NCBI GenBank assembly: GCA_048634245.1
Contig: JAIWAR010000004.1
Location: 1-54,994 of the forward strand
DNA from: Methanosarcinales archaeon
Lineage (GTDB): Bacteria; Omnitrophota; Gorgyraeia; Duberdicusellales; 4484-171
Direction of reading: 5' to 3'
Length of the DNA stretch: 54,994 nucleotides
This document shows positions 1,081 to 32,409 of the stretch, in pieces. The notes under the pieces are model-generated. The model was not told the origin of the DNA, made no database searches, and saw only the letters and a list, made by a program, of their open reading frames with translations. Within the stretch, counting starts at the first letter, position 1. The number at the start of each line of letters is the position of its first letter. Position numbers and translations under genes: made by a program.

Positions 1081-1126
1081 CCCCACCCCTGATTAAAGCC
1101 AGGCTTCACTCAGAGAATAAAATGCC

Positions 1127-1154
1127 TTGATATCCTATATCATATGAGTATAAT
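1127..1154 (+). promoter_or_regulatory. sigma70-type promoter of the DEAD-box helicase gene
   Basis: TTGATA-N16-TATAAT. Confidence 0.5.
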
Positions 1155-1207
1155 ATAGCTGTATTTTAAGAATAAGTAAGTAAAAACAAGGAAAAACAGG
1201 TAAAAAT

Positions 1208-2850: not shown

Positions 2851-3240
2851 ATGAATATGAAAAAACCCAGAGTATCGTTTGTATGCGGAGCAATCATATT
2901 TACCTTACTTTTCGTCGGCTATTTTTTTGGTTATCAATTTCATACCGAATACACACAAAAGTTTGCTTATCTTAGCCTCCAGAACCAACACATTCTTAAA
3001 AAACAGCTGAGTTTACAGAATAATTTAGCAAAACTCAGTATCGCCCTCAAAGACTTAAAAACCGCGAATCGACGGGAAAAAAAGGATATTCTATCTAAAA
3101 TCGAGATTATCACCGGGGAAATCCAAAACTGGAAAACAGAGTATACTACTTCCATAAACGCGGTGAAAAAAGACATAGCGGATTTAACCAAAGTGGATTT
3201 AGGCGAAATCTCGGTGGATAAAAAACTCAGGAAAAAATAG
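2851..3240 (+). CDS. hypothetical membrane-anchored coiled-coil protein
   Basis: AGGAGG 7 nt upstream of the ATG. N-terminal hydrophobic helix followed by heptad-like polar sequence. No recognisable family. Confidence 0.55.
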   Translation: MNMKKPRVSFVCGAIIFTLLFVGYFFGYQFHTEYTQKFAYLSLQNQHILKKQLSLQNNLAKLSIALKDLKTANRREKKDILSKIEIITGEIQNWKTEYTTSINAVKKDIADLTKVDLGEISVDKKLRKK

Positions 3241-3310
3241 CAGTCGAGTTTTAAACCGATTGAAAATTCCTCAACAACCCTTAACTAGCGCAAAACCTTA
3301 AAAAACTATA

Positions 3311-4180
3311 ATGGCTATTGTCGAACCAATCATAAGGCCACCGGCAGAAGCATATAGTTTCCTTTTACAAGTAACTCTGGGATGTTCTGCAAACCACTGT
3401 AGTTTTTGCGGTGCTTACGGGGATAAAACTTTCAGCATAAAAGACTATGAGGAAGTTGCAGCCGACATAAAGCATCATGCCCGCCGGCACAAAGACTCAA
3501 GGCGGGCCTTTCTTCTAGACGGCGATGCGCTTGCCATAAACAATAACCGGCTTCTTCCTATTCTGAAACTACTAACCGAAACTTTTCCGAAGCTTTCCCG
3601 TGTTTCTTCATATGCGAACGGATATAATATTATACAACGTGATCATAATGAATTAACTGAATTATACAACTGTAAGTTAAGGCTTATATACATGGGCTTA
3701 GAAAGCGGCAGCCAGGATATATTAAATTACCATCATAAATCTTCAACTGTCGAGGAGATGATAACAGCAGTAAATAAAGCTGCGCAAGCACAAATAAAGT
3801 CCTCAATCATAGTCTTATTAGGCCTAGGCGGCCGGAAGTATTCCCGAGAGCATATCCGGGATACTATAAAAGCCTTAAACATGATGCAGCCAAGATACCT
3901 CTCATTTCTTTCACTTATGACTATTCCAGGAACACCGTTAGCAGAAAAAGTCGAAAAAAACGCTTTTGAAGAACTGAACTCACAAGAATTATTAAAAGAA
4001 TCATACGAAATTATTAAAGGAGTTAAGCTAACAAAAACTATATTTCGCTCCAACCACGCTTCAAACCACCTTCCTCTTGAAGGGGTACTTCCAAAAGATA
4101 AAACAAAACTACTAAATACTCTTAAATCCGCAATTAGTGGTGATATAAGCTTAAAACCGGAGTTTTTACGGGGATTATAA
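3311..4180 (+). CDS. radical SAM domain protein (paralogue 1), CX4CX2C cluster motif
   Basis: LGCSANHCSFCG cysteine triad, LLDGDAL and YMGLESGS motifs typical of radical SAM cores. About 70 percent identical over the full length to the ORF at 18546-19415. Confidence 0.8.
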   Translation: MAIVEPIIRPPAEAYSFLLQVTLGCSANHCSFCGAYGDKTFSIKDYEEVAADIKHHARRHKDSRRAFLLDGDALAINNNRLLPILKLLTETFPKLSRVSSYANGYNIIQRDHNELTELYNCKLRLIYMGLESGSQDILNYHHKSSTVEEMITAVNKAAQAQIKSSIIVLLGLGGRKYSREHIRDTIKALNMMQPRYLSFLSLMTIPGTPLAEKVEKNAFEELNSQELLKESYEIIKGVKLTKTIFRSNHASNHLPLEGVLPKDKTKLLNTLKSAISGDISLKPEFLRGL

Positions 4181-4303: not shown

Positions 4304-4888
4304 ATGAAAAAAGGCTTATTAATCACTTTAGGTGTTATTGTAATCATTGGGTTTATGCTTGCGGGCCGCTATAACAATTTAGTAATTTTACGCGAAGCTG
4401 TGGATGAAAAGTGGGCCCAGGTAGAAAATGTTTACCAGCGCAGGCTTGACTTGATTCCTAATCTGATTGCAACGGTTAAAGGATATGCTGCACACGAAAA
4501 GCAAACCTTAACCGAAGTCATAGAAGCACGAAATAAGGCTTTACAGACAAAAATAGATGTGGGTTCTCTAAGCGACGAAGCAAAATTTGCGGCGTTTGCT
4601 AAAGCTCAGGATAAACTTTCTTCTGTATTATCTCGTTTAATGGTAGTAGTGGAGAGATATCCTGATTTAAAAGCCAGCCAGAATTTTCTTGCTTTACAGA
4701 GCCAGTTGGAGGGGACCGAAAACAGAATTTCCGTGGAACGTAAACGATACAATGAGGCAGTAAGAAGCTATAATACGACGATTAAAAGGTTTCCGACCAA
4801 CATGATGGCTTCAGCCCTTGGTTTTGATAAGGTTACTTATTTCAAATCAGCTCCGGAAGCCGCAACCGCTCCTAAAGTAGAATTTTAA
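4304..4888 (+). CDS. lemA: LemA family protein
   Basis: N-terminal TM helix plus the conserved LemA core (YNNLV...EKWAQVENVYQRRLDLIPNL...RYPDLKA...RKRYNEAV..YN). AAGGAGG RBS. Confidence 0.9.
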   Translation: MKKGLLITLGVIVIIGFMLAGRYNNLVILREAVDEKWAQVENVYQRRLDLIPNLIATVKGYAAHEKQTLTEVIEARNKALQTKIDVGSLSDEAKFAAFAKAQDKLSSVLSRLMVVVERYPDLKASQNFLALQSQLEGTENRISVERKRYNEAVRSYNTTIKRFPTNMMASALGFDKVTYFKSAPEAATAPKVEF

Positions 4889-18322: not shown

Positions 18323-18545
18323 TATAGTATAAGCAAAAGGACTATCACAAGGGCAGTGTCAGAATTGGGAAAAAAGGAATAATTGAAGTTACCAGAAGCA
18401 AACCGATTCCTCCTGATTTTTCTAATCGAAAAACTAATGTATATAAGCTTTTACCACTTCCACAATTACAAGAATCAATGATAGAATTAGAGAGTGGAAA
18501 AGGAGACGCTTCGATTTTTTAAATAAAAGGGAGTTGACCCTATTA

Positions 18546-19415
18546 ATGAGTATTATCGAACCAGCTATACGGCCTCCGGCGGAAGCGTACAGTTTTCTTT
18601 TACAAGTAACGCTTGGATGCTCTGTAGATTTCTGCAGTTTTTGCGGAGTGTATAAGAGTAAACCGTTTCGCATAAAAGATAACAAAGAAATTACGGCCGA
18701 TATAAACTGCCACGCCCGTTGGCATAAAGACACAAGGCGGGTATTTCTTATGGACGGCGATGCGCTCGTTTTAGATAATAACAGGCTTCTCCCAATTTTA
18801 AAAGAGATAGGAGGGGCTTTTCCAAAACTTTCCCGCATTTCAAGCTATGCGAATGGGCATAATATAGCGCAAAGAAGCGAAAACGAATTAAAAGAATTGC
18901 GGGCCCATAAGTTAAGCCTCATATATATGGGCTTAGAGAGCGGTAGTCAGGACATATTAAATCGTTGCCATAAACGGTCAAAAGTTAAGGAAATGATTGA
19001 TGCCGTGAATAAAGCGGCGCTGGCACAGATAAAGTCTTCGGTTATTGTATTGCTGGGTTTAGGCGGTGTAAAATACTCCAAAGAGCATGTTAAAAGCACA
19101 ATAGAGGCTTTAAACCTAATGCAGCCAAGGTATCTTTCATTTCTCTCCCTTATGATTATTCCCGGTACACCTTTAGCAGAAGAAATAAAAAAAGGCAGTT
19201 TTACAGAACTAAGCCCTATGAAATTGGTAGAGGAGTCCCATGAAATTATTAAGGGGCTTAAACTGAATAAAACTATATTTCGTTCGAATCACGCCTCAAA
19301 TCATCTTCCCTTAGAAGGAGTATTCCCTAAAGATAAAATTAAGCTATTAAATACTCTTGAGTCGGCTATTAATGGGAACTTAGGGTTAAAGCCGGAATTT
19401 TTAAGAGGTTTATAA
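18546..19415 (+). CDS. radical SAM domain protein (paralogue 2), CX4CX2C cluster motif
   Basis: LGCSVDFCSFCG, FLMDGDAL, YMGLESGS. Same length (289 aa) and colinear with 3311-4180. I chose the ATG at 18546 by alignment with the paralogue (MSIIEP vs MAIVEP). Confidence 0.8.
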   Translation: MSIIEPAIRPPAEAYSFLLQVTLGCSVDFCSFCGVYKSKPFRIKDNKEITADINCHARWHKDTRRVFLMDGDALVLDNNRLLPILKEIGGAFPKLSRISSYANGHNIAQRSENELKELRAHKLSLIYMGLESGSQDILNRCHKRSKVKEMIDAVNKAALAQIKSSVIVLLGLGGVKYSKEHVKSTIEALNLMQPRYLSFLSLMIIPGTPLAEEIKKGSFTELSPMKLVEESHEIIKGLKLNKTIFRSNHASNHLPLEGVFPKDKIKLLNTLESAINGNLGLKPEFLRGL

Positions 19416-26624: not shown

Positions 26625-29600
26625 TCAAGAATTATCCCTCTTTTCCTTTTCCTTTTCTTTTTCTTCAATTATCTTTCTGATAATCTCCTTAGGAACCTGG
26701 GTATATTTTTTAAAATGCATGGAAGAATTAGCCCGGCCGCTGCTTAAAGAACGCATATTAGTAGCATACCCAAACATCTCCGACAACGGAGCCTCAGCCG
26801 TGATTATCTTTTGGTTTCCTTTAGTCTCCATACCTAAAATCTTCCCCCGTTTAGAACAAACATAACCGACAAGATTACTAGCATACTCCTCAGGAGTAAC
26901 TATCTCTAACTCCATGCAAGGTTCAAGCAATACCGGTTCAGACTTCATAAAAGCGGCTTTAAAGCAGCTTCGGGCAGCTATCTTAAAGGCCAATTCTGAT
27001 GAATCTACATCATGATAGGAGCCGTCAACCAATTTTACCTTTACATCCACTACCGGATAGCCAGCATAAACCCCCTGCTGCATAGCCGCAATAATCCCCT
27101 TTTCAACAGCCGGAATATAATTCCTGGGAATAACACCACCGGTAATAGCATCTTCGAATTCAAATCCTTTACCTGCCTCATTGGGTGAAAGTTCAATTAC
27201 TACATGGCCATATTGGCCCCGGCCGCCGGTTTGCTTTATATGTTTATATTCTTCGGTTATACTGCCGAGAATAGCTTCTTTATAGGCAACCTTGGGCTGA
27301 CCTACCGTAGCCTTGACTTTAAACTCTTCTTTTAATCTGTCAACGATTATTTCTAAGTGCAGTTCACCCATACCTGAAAGGATAGTCTCTGAAGTCTCCT
27401 CGTCAATATGAGCTTTAAAAGTAGGGTCCTCCTCGGATAGTTTAGCCAGACCTTTACTTAGCTTATCCTGTTCGCTCCTACTCTCAGGCACAATACTGAT
27501 TGAAATTACCGGCTCAGAAAACTCGATTGATTCTAAAATAATCGGGTTGTCTAAAGCAGTAAGGGTATCACCGGTTAAAGTACTGCTTAAGCCTACTACA
27601 GCGGCAATATCGCCGGTAAAGACAACATCTAAATTCTGACGTTGATTAGCGTGCATTTGAACAATTCTTCCCACCCTTTCTTTCTTTTTCTTAGTCGCAT
27701 TAAACACATAGGTTCCGGCTTTTAAACACCCGGAATAAATCCGAATATAGACTAATTTACCGATATGCTGGTCAGCCTGAACCTTAAAAGCTAAAGCTGA
27801 AAAAGGTTCTTGGTCTGAAGGCTTACGTTCAAGGATCTTCTCGGAATCATCAGGATCATGGCCTTGAATAGATGGAATATCTATGGGTGAGGGTAAATAA
27901 AGGGTTATAGCATCAAGAAGGCTCTGCACACCCTTATTTTTAAAAGCTGAACCGCAGAGCGCCGGAATAACCTTATGAGCCATTGTTCCCCGACGAATAG
28001 CTTTTTTCAATTCATCTTCAGTAATTGATTTCTCGTCCTTTAAATACTTCTCAGTAAGAATACTATCGCAAGCAGCAGCTTTTTCCACCATGATATGGTG
28101 ATATTTTTTAGCCGCTTCCTTGTATTCATCAGGAATCTCTTCAACATGAAAATCCTTGCCCAAGGATTCATCATCATAGGTATAAGCCTTCATCTCTATA
28201 AGATCAATGATTCCCCGAAAATTATCCTCAGCTCCAATAGGAATCTGTAAAGGAATTATATTAGCCCCTAAATTATCTCCTATGCTCTTAAGGACCACAA
28301 AGAAATCAGCACCGACCCGGTCCATCTTATTTACAAAGGCAATTTTAGGGACCTGGTATTTATCAGACTGACGCCAAACAGTCTCTGATTGAGGCTCAAC
28401 TCCTCCAACCGCACAAAAAACCGCTATTGCTCCGTCTAAAACCCTTAAACTTCTTTCCACCTCAACGGTAAAGTCAACGTGTCCCGGAGTATCAATAACA
28501 TTAATCCTGCAATCCCCCCAGTAACAGGTAGTTGCAGCTGAGGTGATGGTAATTCCTCTCTCCTGCTCCTGCTTCATCCAATCCATTATCGCAGCCCCAT
28601 CATGGACTTCACCTATTTTGTGAGAATGCCCGGTATAAAAGAGAATCCTTTCGGTCAAGGTGGTTTTACCGGCATCGATATGGGCCATAATCCCGATATT
28701 TCTGACTTTTTCTAAAGCATTTTTCCGGATTGGTAAAGGCTCTTCTCTAGGCTGCTTTTCTTCAGTTTCTCCCTTCTTTTCTTCTACCTCTTTTTTATTT
28801 TCTTCTGCTTCTCCTTTCTTTTTTTCAACTTCTTCCTTACTTTCTTCTACTTCTTCCTTGCTTTCTTCAGCTTCTTTTTTGCTTTCTTCAACCTCTTCTT
28901 TGTCTTCTTCTGTTTCTTTATCTTCCACGCTTTCCTGTTTAAGCTTAGCTTCAACGGAGGTAGTTTCCTTTGGTTTTTCTTCTTGTTCAATCGGGGCTTC
29001 AACAGGAGTCTCGCCGCCTTTTTCCTTAAGCTGATAGGCTAAACGCATTCTCTCCTTATCTACGCTCTCGATTTCCTTATCCTTTAGGCTCAGTTCTTTT
29101 TCTCTGGTTTCTAACTGCTGTTTTAGCTCTTGGTGCCTTTGGGCTAAAACATTATGTTCTTCTTTAGAAATCCACTCACTTTCTTTTTCCTTTTGTTTCA
29201 GCTTTAACACCTCACTCTTGTATGCATTTATTTCACTTTGTAATTTAATTATTCTTTCCGCATCATCTTTAATCTTTTTCTCCTGAGCTGCTTTCGCGCG
29301 CATCAATTCTTTAATATTTCTCTCCAAAGATTTTACCTCGCTTTGAAATTCGGAAATTTCTCTTTTTAAATTAACATTTTTAGTAAACTCTTTTTCTAAT
29401 TGCTTTTCCTTATCCAAAAGTTTATTTTTAAACTCCTGCTCCGGCCCCTTTTCTTTCTTCAAAAGCTTCTGCTGATAAATGAGCCACTTTTTACTCTGTT
29501 TGTACTTCTCTTTTAATTCAACCTCTTTTTTCTTTGAGATCTCCAACTCTTTTTGCAGAGCAATACTGTGACTTTTAATCTTTTCTAAAGCGGCAATAGT

Positions 29601-29780
29601 AGTTTTAAGCTCAAAAACTTTTGACCTTAAAGATTGGACTTTTTCGCCTAAAGCAACGGTTTTTTTATCGGCAAGAAGAGATTTATCCTTTTTTTTAGCA
29701 CCTTTACTGTCATCAAAAATGACAGTAAAGACAACAAGGCCTATAGCTGTAGTAAGCAGTAACCAGACAAATACAATCAT
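26625..29780 (-). CDS. elongation factor G homologue with N-terminal TM anchor, long coiled coil and acidic E/K repeat region (1051 aa)
   Basis: Residues ~352-1051 are a complete EF-G ([21 protein letters not shown], domain IV tip SYHDVDSS). Residues 1-22 are hydrophobic. Residues 23-350 are K/E-rich heptad-like sequence. One uninterrupted frame. Confidence 0.85.
28850..28912 (-). repeat. three tandem 21-nt (7-codon) units inside the EF-G N-terminal extension, encoding EESK(E/K)E(V/A) repeats
   Basis: Plus-strand units ctttcttctacttcttccttg / ctttcttcagcttcttttttg / ctttcttcaacctcttctttg, flanked by degenerate copies. Confidence 0.8.
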
Positions 29781-29801: not shown

Positions 29802-30260
29802 CTACCTTGACTCTTTAGCCTTAGCAATAGAGCGGATGATATCCTTTTTCGTGATTACTCCTACCAATTTTTCTCCCTCTACCACAGGACAATAGTAGCT
29901 GGATTTTTCAATCATCGCGGTCGCGGCATCTTCAATACTCATTTCAGGCGTTAGGCTGATAAAATCTTTTTCTAAGATATCGCCAGCCTTAGTAGCTGTC
30001 ACTTTTTTTATCTCTTCTTCAAACCGCTTCACCCCTAAGGTAAGAAACCCCAGAGAAATATGTAAAAACGTTGGTAGATGCACTTTTTTATCCTGGAAAA
30101 TTACTCCCTCCTCTCCAACAACACCTAATAATTTACCGCCCTCATCTACTACCGGGGCGCCACTGATATTCTTTTCCAGAAATAACTCTGCTAAGGCACC
30201 TACGCTGGTCGCCGGAGTAACCGTAATCGGATCTTTAGTCATTATATCTTTTACCTGCAT
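29802..30260 (-). CDS. CBS domain pair protein
   Basis: Two CBS motifs (MTKDPITV...GAPVVD; ...MIEKSSYYCPVVEGEKLVGVITKKDI) separated by an insertion. Confidence 0.85.
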   Translation of the reverse strand: MQVKDIMTKDPITVTPATSVGALAELFLEKNISGAPVVDEGGKLLGVVGEEGVIFQDKKVHLPTFLHISLGFLTLGVKRFEEEIKKVTATKAGDILEKDFISLTPEMSIEDAATAMIEKSSYYCPVVEGEKLVGVITKKDIIRSIAKAKESR

Positions 30261-30266
30261 TTGAAC

Positions 30267-30376
30267 CTCCTCAATGAGACTTATCCGCCTTAAGCGGATG
30301 TAGTCGAATTGATCCCGAAGTCGCGTTGGGTAAATGTCGAAGAGATTTACCCAACATCCCCTGCGACGAGGGATAC
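30267..30376 (-). repeat. structured leader element, copy A (5' UTR of the CBS / EF-G-like operon)
   Basis: The 70-nt core 30304-30373 is 68/70 identical to 31539-31608. It contains a perfect 10-bp hairpin ttgggtaaat-N9-atttacccaa. Confidence 0.8.
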
Positions 30377-30394: not shown

Positions 30395-30423
30395 ATTATA
30401 TCACAAATTTACATCTTTGCTAA
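30395..30423 (-). promoter_or_regulatory. promoter of the CBS / EF-G-like operon
   Basis: Minus-sense TTAGCA-N17-TATAAT with extended -10 TG. Its -35 overlaps the -35 of the divergent yqeY promoter. Confidence 0.5.
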
Positions 30424-31256: not shown

Positions 31257-31490
31257 TTACATCTGAGCTATAGCCTCCTGAATCAAAGGCAAAACTCCTT
31301 CAGCCTCTGCTTTATTTAAACGGCCTAATTTAGTAAATCTAAACTCGCCCTCAGCAGATTCATTCTCCCGGGAAATTTGCAACTTCTTAGCTCCCTTGTT
31401 ATAAGAATAGACGCTCACCGTAATTTTAGTGCCTTCACCACCCCAAGTCCTGGAAAACAATTGCTCATCTAAACCGCTTTCGTATGGCAT
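31257..31490 (-). CDS. PC4/YdbC-like single-stranded DNA-binding protein
   Basis: The pattern WGGEG.KITVSVYSYNKG.KKLQISRE....GEFRFTKLGRL..AEAEGV resembles bacterial PC4 (p15) homologues. I prefer the ATG at 31490, 5 nt after GGAGG, over the GTG at 31496. Confidence 0.55.
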   Translation of the reverse strand: MPYESGLDEQLFSRTWGGEGTKITVSVYSYNKGAKKLQISRENESAEGEFRFTKLGRLNKAEAEGVLPLIQEAIAQM

Positions 31491-31496
31491 ATACAC

Positions 31497-31610
31497 CTCC
31501 TTTCAATGAGACTTAGTCCGCCGGAGGCGGACTGTAGCTCGAATTGATCCCGAAGCCGCGTTGGGTAAATGTCGAAGAGATTTACCCAACATCCCCTGCG
31601 GCGAGGGACA
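31497..31610 (-). repeat. structured leader element, copy B (5' UTR of the PC4-like gene)
   Basis: Same orientation and same position relative to the RBS as copy A. Confidence 0.8.
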
Positions 31611-31648
31611 CTTATTAAATATTTTAACAAAACCCATAACTTTATTCT

Positions 31649-31676
31649 ATTTTACTCAAACATCTTTCTGTGTCAA
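31649..31676 (-). promoter_or_regulatory. promoter of the PC4-like operon
   Basis: Minus-sense TTGACA-N16-TAAAAT. Confidence 0.55.
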
Positions 31677-31692
31677 GGCCATCTAAGGATTA

Positions 31693-32409
31693 TCAGAGGC
31701 TAAGATGAGTAAGATGTTTTTCTACGAACCGGATAATTTTTTTCTGTTTTTGGGCGGTTATATTATGGAATTCCAGGCCCATTCCCGGATAATAATCCGG
31801 CTGAATTTCTTTATCAACCAACCAGACTACCTTAACATCAGCTTCTACAATCTCAGAGTGATGCCGAAGGTCCAACCGAGTAACCAGTAAATCCCCTATC
31901 GAGAATACTTGCTCACTAATTATAAATACTCCTTCAGCGCTCAAATTTACAATTTTTCCCTTAAAAAAAGGTTTATCCGTAAGAAACTTCTGACGATATT
32001 CAATAGTAGCTTTAAAAGGTATTCTTTTAAATCTCCTCCTTAGGGGCTTGCGGGCAATTCGCTCAATTATCTGTTCCTGCCTAATCTCATCTATTGCCTG
32101 TTCCTCGCTGAGATGAAACTTAAAAATTCTATCTAAGCCGACAATTGAAAATAATCTCCTTACGTGCGAAGGAACATTACATAATTCAATTCTTCCCTTA
32201 TGATTTAGAACATTTTTGTATACAACTGTGACCAAAGAAACTCCCACATAGTCAACTAAATTTACACCGGCAAAGTTGCAAACAATATCCTTGACCTGAC
32301 GATTAAGCACCCGCCCTATAGTTTCGACGAAATCCGAGGCATCAATGCCAATATTGCCTTCCAGCTCTAAAATAACTACTCCATCCTTTTCTTTAATTTT
32401 AATCTTCAT
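31693..32409 (-). CDS. STAS (anti-sigma-factor antagonist) domain fused to a PilZ c-di-GMP-binding domain
   Basis: N-terminal STAS pattern (VVILELEGNI...VDYVGVSLV...VGLDRIF). PilZ motifs RRRFKR (RxxxR) and NLSAEG (D/NxSxxG). Confidence 0.8.
   Translation of the reverse strand: MKIKIKEKDGVVILELEGNIGIDASDFVETIGRVLNRQVKDIVCNFAGVNLVDYVGVSLVTVVYKNVLNHKGRIELCNVPSHVRRLFSIVGLDRIFKFHLSEEQAIDEIRQEQIIERIARKPLRRRFKRIPFKATIEYRQKFLTDKPFFKGKIVNLSAEGVFIISEQVFSIGDLLVTRLDLRHHSEIVEADVKVVWLVDKEIQPDYYPGMGLEFHNITAQKQKKIIRFVEKHLTHLSL

Follow-up and report, generated by a model that had tools for sequence, protein, structure and literature searches.

A covariation-supported family of two-hairpin RNA elements that includes two 5' leaders of an Omnitrophota contig and recurs in other phyla

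The question raised by this locus is whether a structured element of about 110 nt, present twice as the 5' leader of a minus-strand gene, is a sensor of the riboswitch or thermosensor type or a leader of another kind. The window analyzed here is the whole 54,994-nt stretch of contig JAIWAR010000004.1, and its two copies of the element are called A and B. An earlier note, made from the letters of the window alone, had described compensatory substitutions between the copies and had pointed out that the 5' AUCCCU can pair with either AGGGGAU or a distal GGGAU, a mutually exclusive arrangement of the type seen in riboswitches and thermosensors. The features assigned to the two copies and their surroundings are as follows (SD, Shine-Dalgarno sequence).

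30263..30376, minus strand: copy A, whole element (5' hairpin domain and 3' hairpin domain, into the SD); 108.5 bits with the covariance model, over all 117 model positions
30312..30374, minus strand: 5' domain of copy A, from the structure supplied to the covariance model
30374-30370 with 30316-30312, minus strand: helix P1 of copy A, AUCCC with GGGAU
30367-30363 with 30324-30320, minus strand: helix P1b of copy A, GUCGC with GCGAC
30355-30345 with 30335-30325, minus strand: helix P2 of copy A, 11 bp, with loop CUCUUCGAC (30344-30336)
30272..30311, minus strand: 3' domain of copy A, the conserved core of the family, kept across phyla
30311-30308 with 30275-30272, minus strand: helix P3a of copy A, CAAU with AUUG, followed by a UC/UC internal loop
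30305-30302 with 30281-30278, minus strand: helix P3b of copy A, GACU with AGUC
30299-30292 with 30290-30283, minus strand: apical stem of the 3' domain of copy A
30266..30270, minus strand: SD GGAGG of the CBS-domain gene, 1 nt past the last helix, with the ATG at 30260-30258 (from the sequence and the list of open reading frames)
30395..30423, minus strand: predicted promoter of copy A, TTAGCA-17-TG-TATAAT (consensus scan)
29802..30260, minus strand: gene downstream of copy A, a 152-aa protein with a CBS-domain pair (Pfam)
31493..31611, minus strand: copy B, whole element; 86.8 bits over the full covariance model, aligned with copy A
31649..31676, minus strand: predicted promoter of copy B, TTGACA-16-TAAAAT, 11 of 12 matches (consensus scan)
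31257..31490, minus strand: gene downstream of copy B, a 77-aa protein with its ATG at 31490, 5 nt past the SD

Copies A and B can be aligned from 'GUAUCCC' through the SD, and the repeat finder delimits a 73-nt core (30304-30376 versus 31539-31611) with 96% identity. The window contains exactly two occurrences of a 40-mer of this core, and shuffled sequence contains none; a scan of the window with the covariance model, filters off, recovered copies A and B only. The descriptive claims of the earlier note were borne out at this level. Both copies lie on the minus strand between a sigma-70-like promoter and an SD, with the start codon next, and their 70-nt core differs at two positions only (30366, U to C in the RNA, and 30321, A to G). 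The two positions pair with each other, such that GUCGC/GCGAC in copy A becomes GCCGC/GCGGC in copy B through a compensatory change from U-A to C-G. The 10-bp hairpin UUGGGUAAAU-N9-AUUUACCCAA is exact in both copies, and the hairpin adjacent to the ribosome-binding site remains paired despite a changed sequence (AUCCGCU..GGCGGAU in copy A, AGUCCGCC..GGCGGACU in copy B). The folding energies (z = -4.1 for copy A and -3.6 for copy B) beat 200 of 200 shuffles in each case. Transcription is predicted to start at ~30388, ~12 nt upstream of the element, for copy A and ~30 nt upstream of it for copy B. The 77-aa open reading frame that follows copy B matched no Pfam family.

Several neighbors of the two copies were recorded alongside. 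The CBS gene led by copy A is directly followed by a 1051-aa open reading frame (26625-29780, minus strand), the C-terminal ~670 residues of which resemble elongation factor G by eye; its N-terminal extension of ~380 aa has a hydrophobic start, is rich in Lys and Glu, and contains repeats (families D4 and D6). A protein with STAS and PilZ domains (31693-32409, minus strand) is encoded directly upstream of the copy B promoter. Farther away, two stretches of ~850 nt each (3309-4162 and 18544-19397), located 15.2 kb apart, are 72 to 75% identical and are probably paralogous genes.

We compared the whole window with the 4,227 covariance models of Rfam 15 at the gathering threshold, and its sole match was a cobalamin riboswitch elsewhere (RF00174, 39261-39492, minus strand, 86.9 bits), with nothing at the element; around copies A and B, E-values up to 10 added nothing relevant. 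The same search returned no family match on locus L001 or on a Bacteroidales copy, and only tRNAs at 15 related loci. The lack of an Rfam match agrees with the earlier note, whose author could match the element to no familiar RNA family, and literature searches found no published description of the element family. More than 200 relatives were nevertheless retrieved. An exact 37-mer search yielded a third copy, located before a LysM/YkuD gene in an Omnitrophota metagenome-assembled genome (MAG). A genome scan with the 3'-hairpin-base pattern CGGGATYAATTCG...AGYCTCATTGA identified at least 118 loci, and a version of this pattern that required an SD identified 68 metagenome loci. The covariance model, built from 15 sequences, gave 95 and 109 matches in two sets and also picked up copies that the sequence patterns had missed. 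A gapped pattern, GGGGATG...CTTCGGGATCAA, was discarded, given that nearly all of its ~100 loci were chance matches.

These relatives constitute a family of two-hairpin RNA elements of ~85 to 130 nt that is real, covariation supported, multicopy, and absent from Rfam. The consensus consists of a 5' hairpin, a linker of 0 to 1 nt, and a 3' hairpin. The 5' hairpin comprises P1 (AUCCC/GGGAU), an internal loop, a short helix, and an 11-bp apical stem with a loop of ~YUCUUCGAU. The short inner helix takes the form GUCGC/GCGAC in the subfamily of copies A and B and elsewhere is GCGC/GCGC or a 2-bp helix beside a UC/UC loop. The 3' hairpin reads CAAU-UC-GACU ... AGUC-UC-AUUG with a free apex, and its base, YAAUUCGRCU...AGYCUCAUUGA, is almost invariant (3 to 4 bp, a UC/UC internal loop, and 4 bp), an invariance that is partly by construction, since the core helices had their sequence set by the search patterns. 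Sequence and length vary freely in the 5' hairpin and in the apex of the 3' hairpin, but the pairing is retained.

Covariation held up in larger alignments, which, as a caveat, were fitted to the covariance model. In the first of these, 95.1% of cells are paired and both sides have changed in 35 of 37 pairs; the corresponding values in the cross-phylum alignment are 95.0% and 32 of 37. Sliding the partner by 1 to 3 columns reduced pairing to 27 to 53% (31 to 53% in the first alignment), and no shuffle equaled the observed values. Helices 1 to 3 are 88 to 94% paired with both-side changes, and helices 4 and 5 are ~99% paired. G-U combinations outnumber A-C combinations (81 versus 29), which points to structure at the RNA level, on the sense strand. 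The proposal of a structured RNA in the 5' leader is upheld, with covariation backing in the large alignment for each helix that the earlier note had named.

The proposed switch fared differently. A riboswitch or RNA thermometer would use the exclusive pairings of the 5' AUCCCU to control access to the SD, and the element does adjoin the SD and does carry the AGGGGAU partner in copies A, B, and C; the use of local alternatives by the minimum-free-energy folds is also in favor of a switch. The partner is, however, present in just 5 of 58 family members. No unpaired pocket is conserved: the 5' domain ranges from a plain hairpin of 30 nt to a bulged one of 70 nt, is free in size and sequence apart from its pairing, and leaves the invariant positions to the helix base of the 3' hairpin rather than to an unpaired aptamer core. 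The SD lies outside all conserved helices, starting 1 nt past the last of them, and its accessibility is predicted. When 88 leaders were folded by partition function, the SD had a mean probability of being unpaired of 0.57 with the native element versus 0.33 with a shuffled one (native above shuffled in 75 of 88, p = 2e-12), a thermodynamic prediction of a kind that any self-contained fold is expected to yield. A pseudoknot between the P2 loop and the SD was also dismissed, given that the complementarity (4.71) is no better than that of shuffles of the same composition (4.43). Further points against a sensor are that the downstream genes are unrelated and form no functionally coherent set, and that some copies precede tRNA genes. 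The element resembles riboswitches and RNA thermometers as a covariation-backed structure in the 5' untranslated region (UTR) beside the ribosome-binding site, but it differs from riboswitches in having no conserved pocket, coherent gene set, or conserved alternative pairing, and from thermometers such as ROSE and fourU in that its consensus fold does not sequester the SD. We regard sensing as the least likely of the rival explanations and give it hardly any weight.

What characterizes the Omnitrophota subfamily is its position. These members have a long, bulged 5' hairpin, lie in the 5' UTR, and end 0 to 1 nt before the SD. A search that made no demand for an SD yielded 27 complex-type copies. 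In 20 of them an SD is present no more than 5 nt from the final CAUUGA, accompanied in 19 cases by an open reading frame start. The earlier note had reasoned that dozens of copies scattered in random orientation and position would indicate a REP- or MITE-like repeat rather than a leader. Dozens of copies do exist, and the relatives in other phyla do behave as scattered repeats, but the 20 of 27 SD-adjacent copies make the Omnitrophota placement nonrandom. The genes that follow the element are functionally unrelated and mostly housekeeping. They include translation-related genes (S11, L32, L35, HPF, RbfA, and a DEAD/DbpA helicase), genes for RecA, HU, GAPDH, enolase, transaldolase, an aminotransferase, PanD, NifU, and ferredoxin, and genes for CBS, YkuD, a PilT-like ATPase, and class III signal-peptide pilins. 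Some Omnitrophota copies lie upstream of tRNA genes instead.

The element is multicopy within one population, and its copies there are nearly identical. The window sequence recurs in cold-seep metagenomes, and in two of these the summed contig depth over the 5' domain was 530 to 1,100 versus 20 to 25 in the flanks (25 to 40x, with 19 to 76 contigs per run), which corresponds to tens of near-identical 5' domains for each genome equivalent; should several related populations have contributed, this estimate is an upper limit. At the apex of the 3' hairpin the depth was near single copy. Single contigs carry 3 to 5 copies, and tandem copies also occur. One contig (L279, 1-6246) is palindromic, with 3.1-kb arms that are 99% complementary around a 20-nt spacer; this is most likely an assembly artifact, and one element copy consequently shows up as two inverted copies. 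We also considered whether a promoter, 'ATATTAAT', is carried by the element. This motif is common in some subfamilies. Over 83 copies, however, none of the 40 positions before the element exceeds 0.3 bit, and separate, stronger promoters of copies A and B are located farther upstream; the candidate was rejected.

Our preferred explanation, on which we stand about evenly divided between acceptance and doubt, is that copies A and B belong to a leader cassette that propagates and leaves the SD accessible. Such a portable cassette would spread by duplication, recombination, or an as yet obscure transposition route, and it would be retained given that its self-contained fold could insulate the translation start region and keep the SD single stranded. 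The element may also stabilize the mRNA or provide a common protein-binding site, and its action would be constitutive and not a response to a metabolite or to temperature. The findings that speak for the cassette are the covariation, the size of the family, the SD-flush position, the unrelated genes, the copy number, the presence/absence polymorphism described below, and the predicted exposure of the SD. Leader hairpins that stabilize or insulate a 5' UTR are known from ompA and aprE, and the synthetic RiboJ places a hairpin before the ribosome-binding site. By functional analogy, predicted here, the element would likewise be a self-folding leader directly before an exposed SD, independent of gene context. 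Unlike these single-gene or engineered cases, it is a family of natural origin found at dozens of genes, and its stabilizing or cleavage role is putative.

An alternative to the cassette is that the element is the shared cis-target of one trans-acting factor, a protein or a small RNA, through which dozens of growth-related genes and tRNA operons would be coregulated posttranscriptionally, in parallel to eukaryotic 5' TOP mRNAs. The enrichment of genes for translation and central metabolism (S11, L32, L35, HPF, RbfA, EF-P, the DEAD helicase, GAPDH, and enolase) fits a common factor, as do the tRNA operons that carry the element and the core sequence that stays invariant where pairing alone would suffice. 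The combination of near-identical copies within a genome and covariation between lineages points the same way; CRISPR repeats and REPs combine within-genome identity with between-lineage covariation, and they have partner proteins. We nonetheless consider coregulation quite unlikely, given that the partner is only putative, that the element is dispensable at an orthologous locus, and that the gene set extends to pilins, YkuD, and proteins of unknown function.

The predicted transcription starts precede the first hairpin by 12 and 30 nt, and a classical 5'-terminal stabilizer role would accordingly require processing. The element could itself be a processing signal, for example, for RNase III acting on the ~20-bp quasi-continuous 3' hairpin, with cleavage giving mRNAs and tRNA precursors mature 5' ends at defined positions. 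The length of this hairpin and its small symmetric internal loops, the transcription starts predicted upstream of the element, and its occurrence before mRNAs and tRNAs alike would all suit a cleavage site. Set against them, RNase III needs no conserved sequence and the antisense copies in Bacteroidota do not fit, and we judge a role as processing signal very unlikely. In the metatranscriptome of the same sample, contigs cover both downstream genes and none covers the element, and the element was found in none of the RNA runs; the missing coverage also counts against the cassette.

At the CBS locus, the element is present at some orthologous sites and absent from others. In related MAGs, the CBS gene orthologues still have yqeY as divergent neighbor and retain the 'TGTGATATAAT' promoter with or without the element. 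At two of them (L105 and L110) the element is absent and the promoter is ~25 nt from the SD, at three (L106, L108, and L109) there are diverged versions, and at one (L107) a degenerate copy is accompanied by a partial duplication; more distant orthologues are without the element. The diverged copies at L108 and L109 contain compensatory variants in the 3'-hairpin base, with GACU/AGUC replaced by GAUC/GAUC and UCAAU/AUUGA by UUAAU/AUUAA. Presence/absence polymorphism at an orthologous site, one of the hallmarks of miniature inverted-repeat transposable elements (MITEs), is found here.

Copies outside Omnitrophota extend this picture. Among the matches listed, the core occurs in MAGs labeled Bacteroidota, Syntrophaceae and related groups, Cloacimonadota, Dojkabacteria, and Gammaproteobacteria, and by record labels the core sequence is common to at least five phyla. 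In Bacteroidota and other phyla, simpler relatives take the form of intergenic repeats. An intergenic repeat of ~175 nt in one Bacteroidales MAG has the core as its 3' part; its ends are sharp, and it occurs in more than 20 copies, in either orientation, none of which contains an open reading frame. In the MAG CAWBCI01, the left end of the repeat, read in reverse at ~20 loci and at L202 (~3185-3365), is a GC-rich hairpin with a T-rich tract and looks terminator-like, and many repeat copies there directly adjoin a convergent gene at its stop codon, the junction containing TTAA. Two lineages in MAGs labeled Gammaproteobacteria (L195, ~4356-4427, plus strand, and L260, ~1103-1197, minus strand) are without an SD, and in them the AUG of EF-P and of a GHMP kinase stands 2 nt past CAUUGA; from its sequence, this kinase is probably the homoserine kinase ThrB.

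The most serious competitor of the cassette is that the element is a selfish, nonautonomous mobile element, MITE- or REP-like, whose hairpins serve its own propagation and whose copies persist only at sites where the damage is small, such as the position immediately before an SD that remains exposed. Nearly identical copies within a population, tandem copies, and presence/absence with degenerate or partly duplicated copies at one orthologous site would be expected of such an element, and the same holds for the sharp ends, high copy number, and double orientation of the Bacteroidales repeat, for copies embedded in duplicated tRNA fragments (see below), and for the weaker excess of G-U over A-C in simple-type members (51 versus 33). 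The element also has the many copies per genome that define a MITE, but no related autonomous element encoding a transposase was found: an all-against-all comparison of 401 open reading frames within 2.5 kb of copies revealed no recurrent mobility gene, such as a transposase, an integrase, or a RAYT-like open reading frame. This absence of mobility machinery also weighs against a cassette that propagates. Aligned Bacteroidales copies have no terminal inverted repeats (left end '..AATAAACTACCCCGC', right end 'CTCATTGATTAA'), the hairpins of the element being internal and mutually independent, and no target-site duplication was seen in Bacteroidales or leader copies. BLAST against phage and plasmid collections gave no match; a lone pattern match in a viral contig lies in coding-like sequence and looks like chance, and a phage or plasmid origin was rejected. 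A guide-RNA scaffold of TnpB/IscB or an insertion sequence end was rejected because neither an open reading frame upstream of the Bacteroidota copies nor a recurrent mobility gene was found, and an integron attC site was rejected by eye because there are no arrays and no R'/R'' boxes. Random insertion would not be expected to leave the 3' end flush with the SD in about three-quarters of Omnitrophota copies, nor does a purely selfish element readily account for a sequence core conserved over at least five phyla. We consider it a possible, though doubtful, explanation. The cassette has its own difficulty in these data, given that copies before tRNA genes and the Bacteroidota copies in either orientation cannot serve translation.

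Structured intergenic repeats that are cotranscribed with their neighbors are well known, including Correia/NEMIS elements of Neisseria, enterobacterial ERIC and REP/BIME, and pneumococcal BOX/RUP; they can alter the expression or stability of the adjacent mRNA and are limited to a species or genus. The element is similarly short, free of open reading frames, multicopy, near-identical within a genome, hairpin forming, intergenic, and polymorphic in its presence. In contrast to these repeats, it has two independent hairpins and no terminal inverted repeat spanning it, its core is found in at least five phyla, its Omnitrophota copies are gene oriented and SD flush, and some copies lie inside tRNA-gene fragments. 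Putative mobile promoters are highly similar 5' regulatory regions that precede nonhomologous genes and are in some cases common to distant bacteria (PMC3575422). The element likewise forms a similar 5' block before nonhomologous genes, but the shared block is a transcribed leader plus SD and not the promoter; copies A and B have different predicted promoters, both of them outside the block on its upstream side.

If the expression of dozens of housekeeping genes is indeed set by the cassette, the element would amount to a natural, portable insulator of translation initiation and would show how uncultured bacteria with small genomes standardize gene expression. The cross-phylum core and the tRNA-embedded copies point to an uncharacterized route by which short structured DNA or RNA may spread, and a covariance model would annotate hundreds of intergenic regions that now resemble candidate riboswitches. 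On a bolder reading, which we think unlikely, the family represents an undescribed system: either a shared leader through which one trans-acting factor would co-control dozens of growth-related mRNAs and tRNA operons in reduced Omnitrophota genomes, or a new class of RNA-structured mobile element, in at least five phyla, that would enter tRNA-gene loops and sites just upstream of translation starts without a known transposase.

The element is linked to tRNA genes at eight loci, where the inserts are ~100 to 150 bp long and without an open reading frame or integrase. At four of them (L001-D, at L001 3063-3150, minus strand; L216; L226; and L262), it stands between nucleotides 12 and 13 of a duplicated tRNA 5' fragment, in the order promoter plus tRNA nucleotides 1 to 12, element, tRNA nucleotides 13 to ~20-25, a small hairpin followed by U's, and an intact tRNA (Met, Phe, or Thr). 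At two others (L186, 293-365, and L197, 3091-3217, both plus strand), the element follows an intact tRNA, and that tRNA is then repeated from the T-loop to the 3' end. The remaining two (L189, 6936-7170, and L275, 5503-5598, both minus strand) consist of tandem units in which the element is followed by a stretch of 34 or 23 nt that is antisense to a tRNA 5' part. The tRNA-linked copies have direct repeats of 12, 20, 34, and 64 nt, which at L216 also take in ~52 nt of the promoter region, and the fragment junctions fall at the D-arm, the anticodon loop, and the T-loop. Direct repeats of tRNA fragments that end in the T-loop or anticodon loop, together with tandem accretion, resemble the integrative elements that target tRNA genes; the small insert, the missing integrase, and the unusual site between nucleotides 12 and 13 of a duplicated 5' fragment in some copies set the element apart from them. 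The upstream flank at L186 resembles a decayed second copy of tRNA-Phe. The element itself bears some likeness to tRNA as well, which may reflect tRNA ancestry or a tertiary motif: the pentamer UUCGA, a tRNA T-loop sequence, occurs in the P2 loop consensus YUCUUCGAU and in the invariant AAUUCGACU, and the invariant AGUCUCAUUGA resembles the tRNA D-arm (AGCUCA.UUGG).
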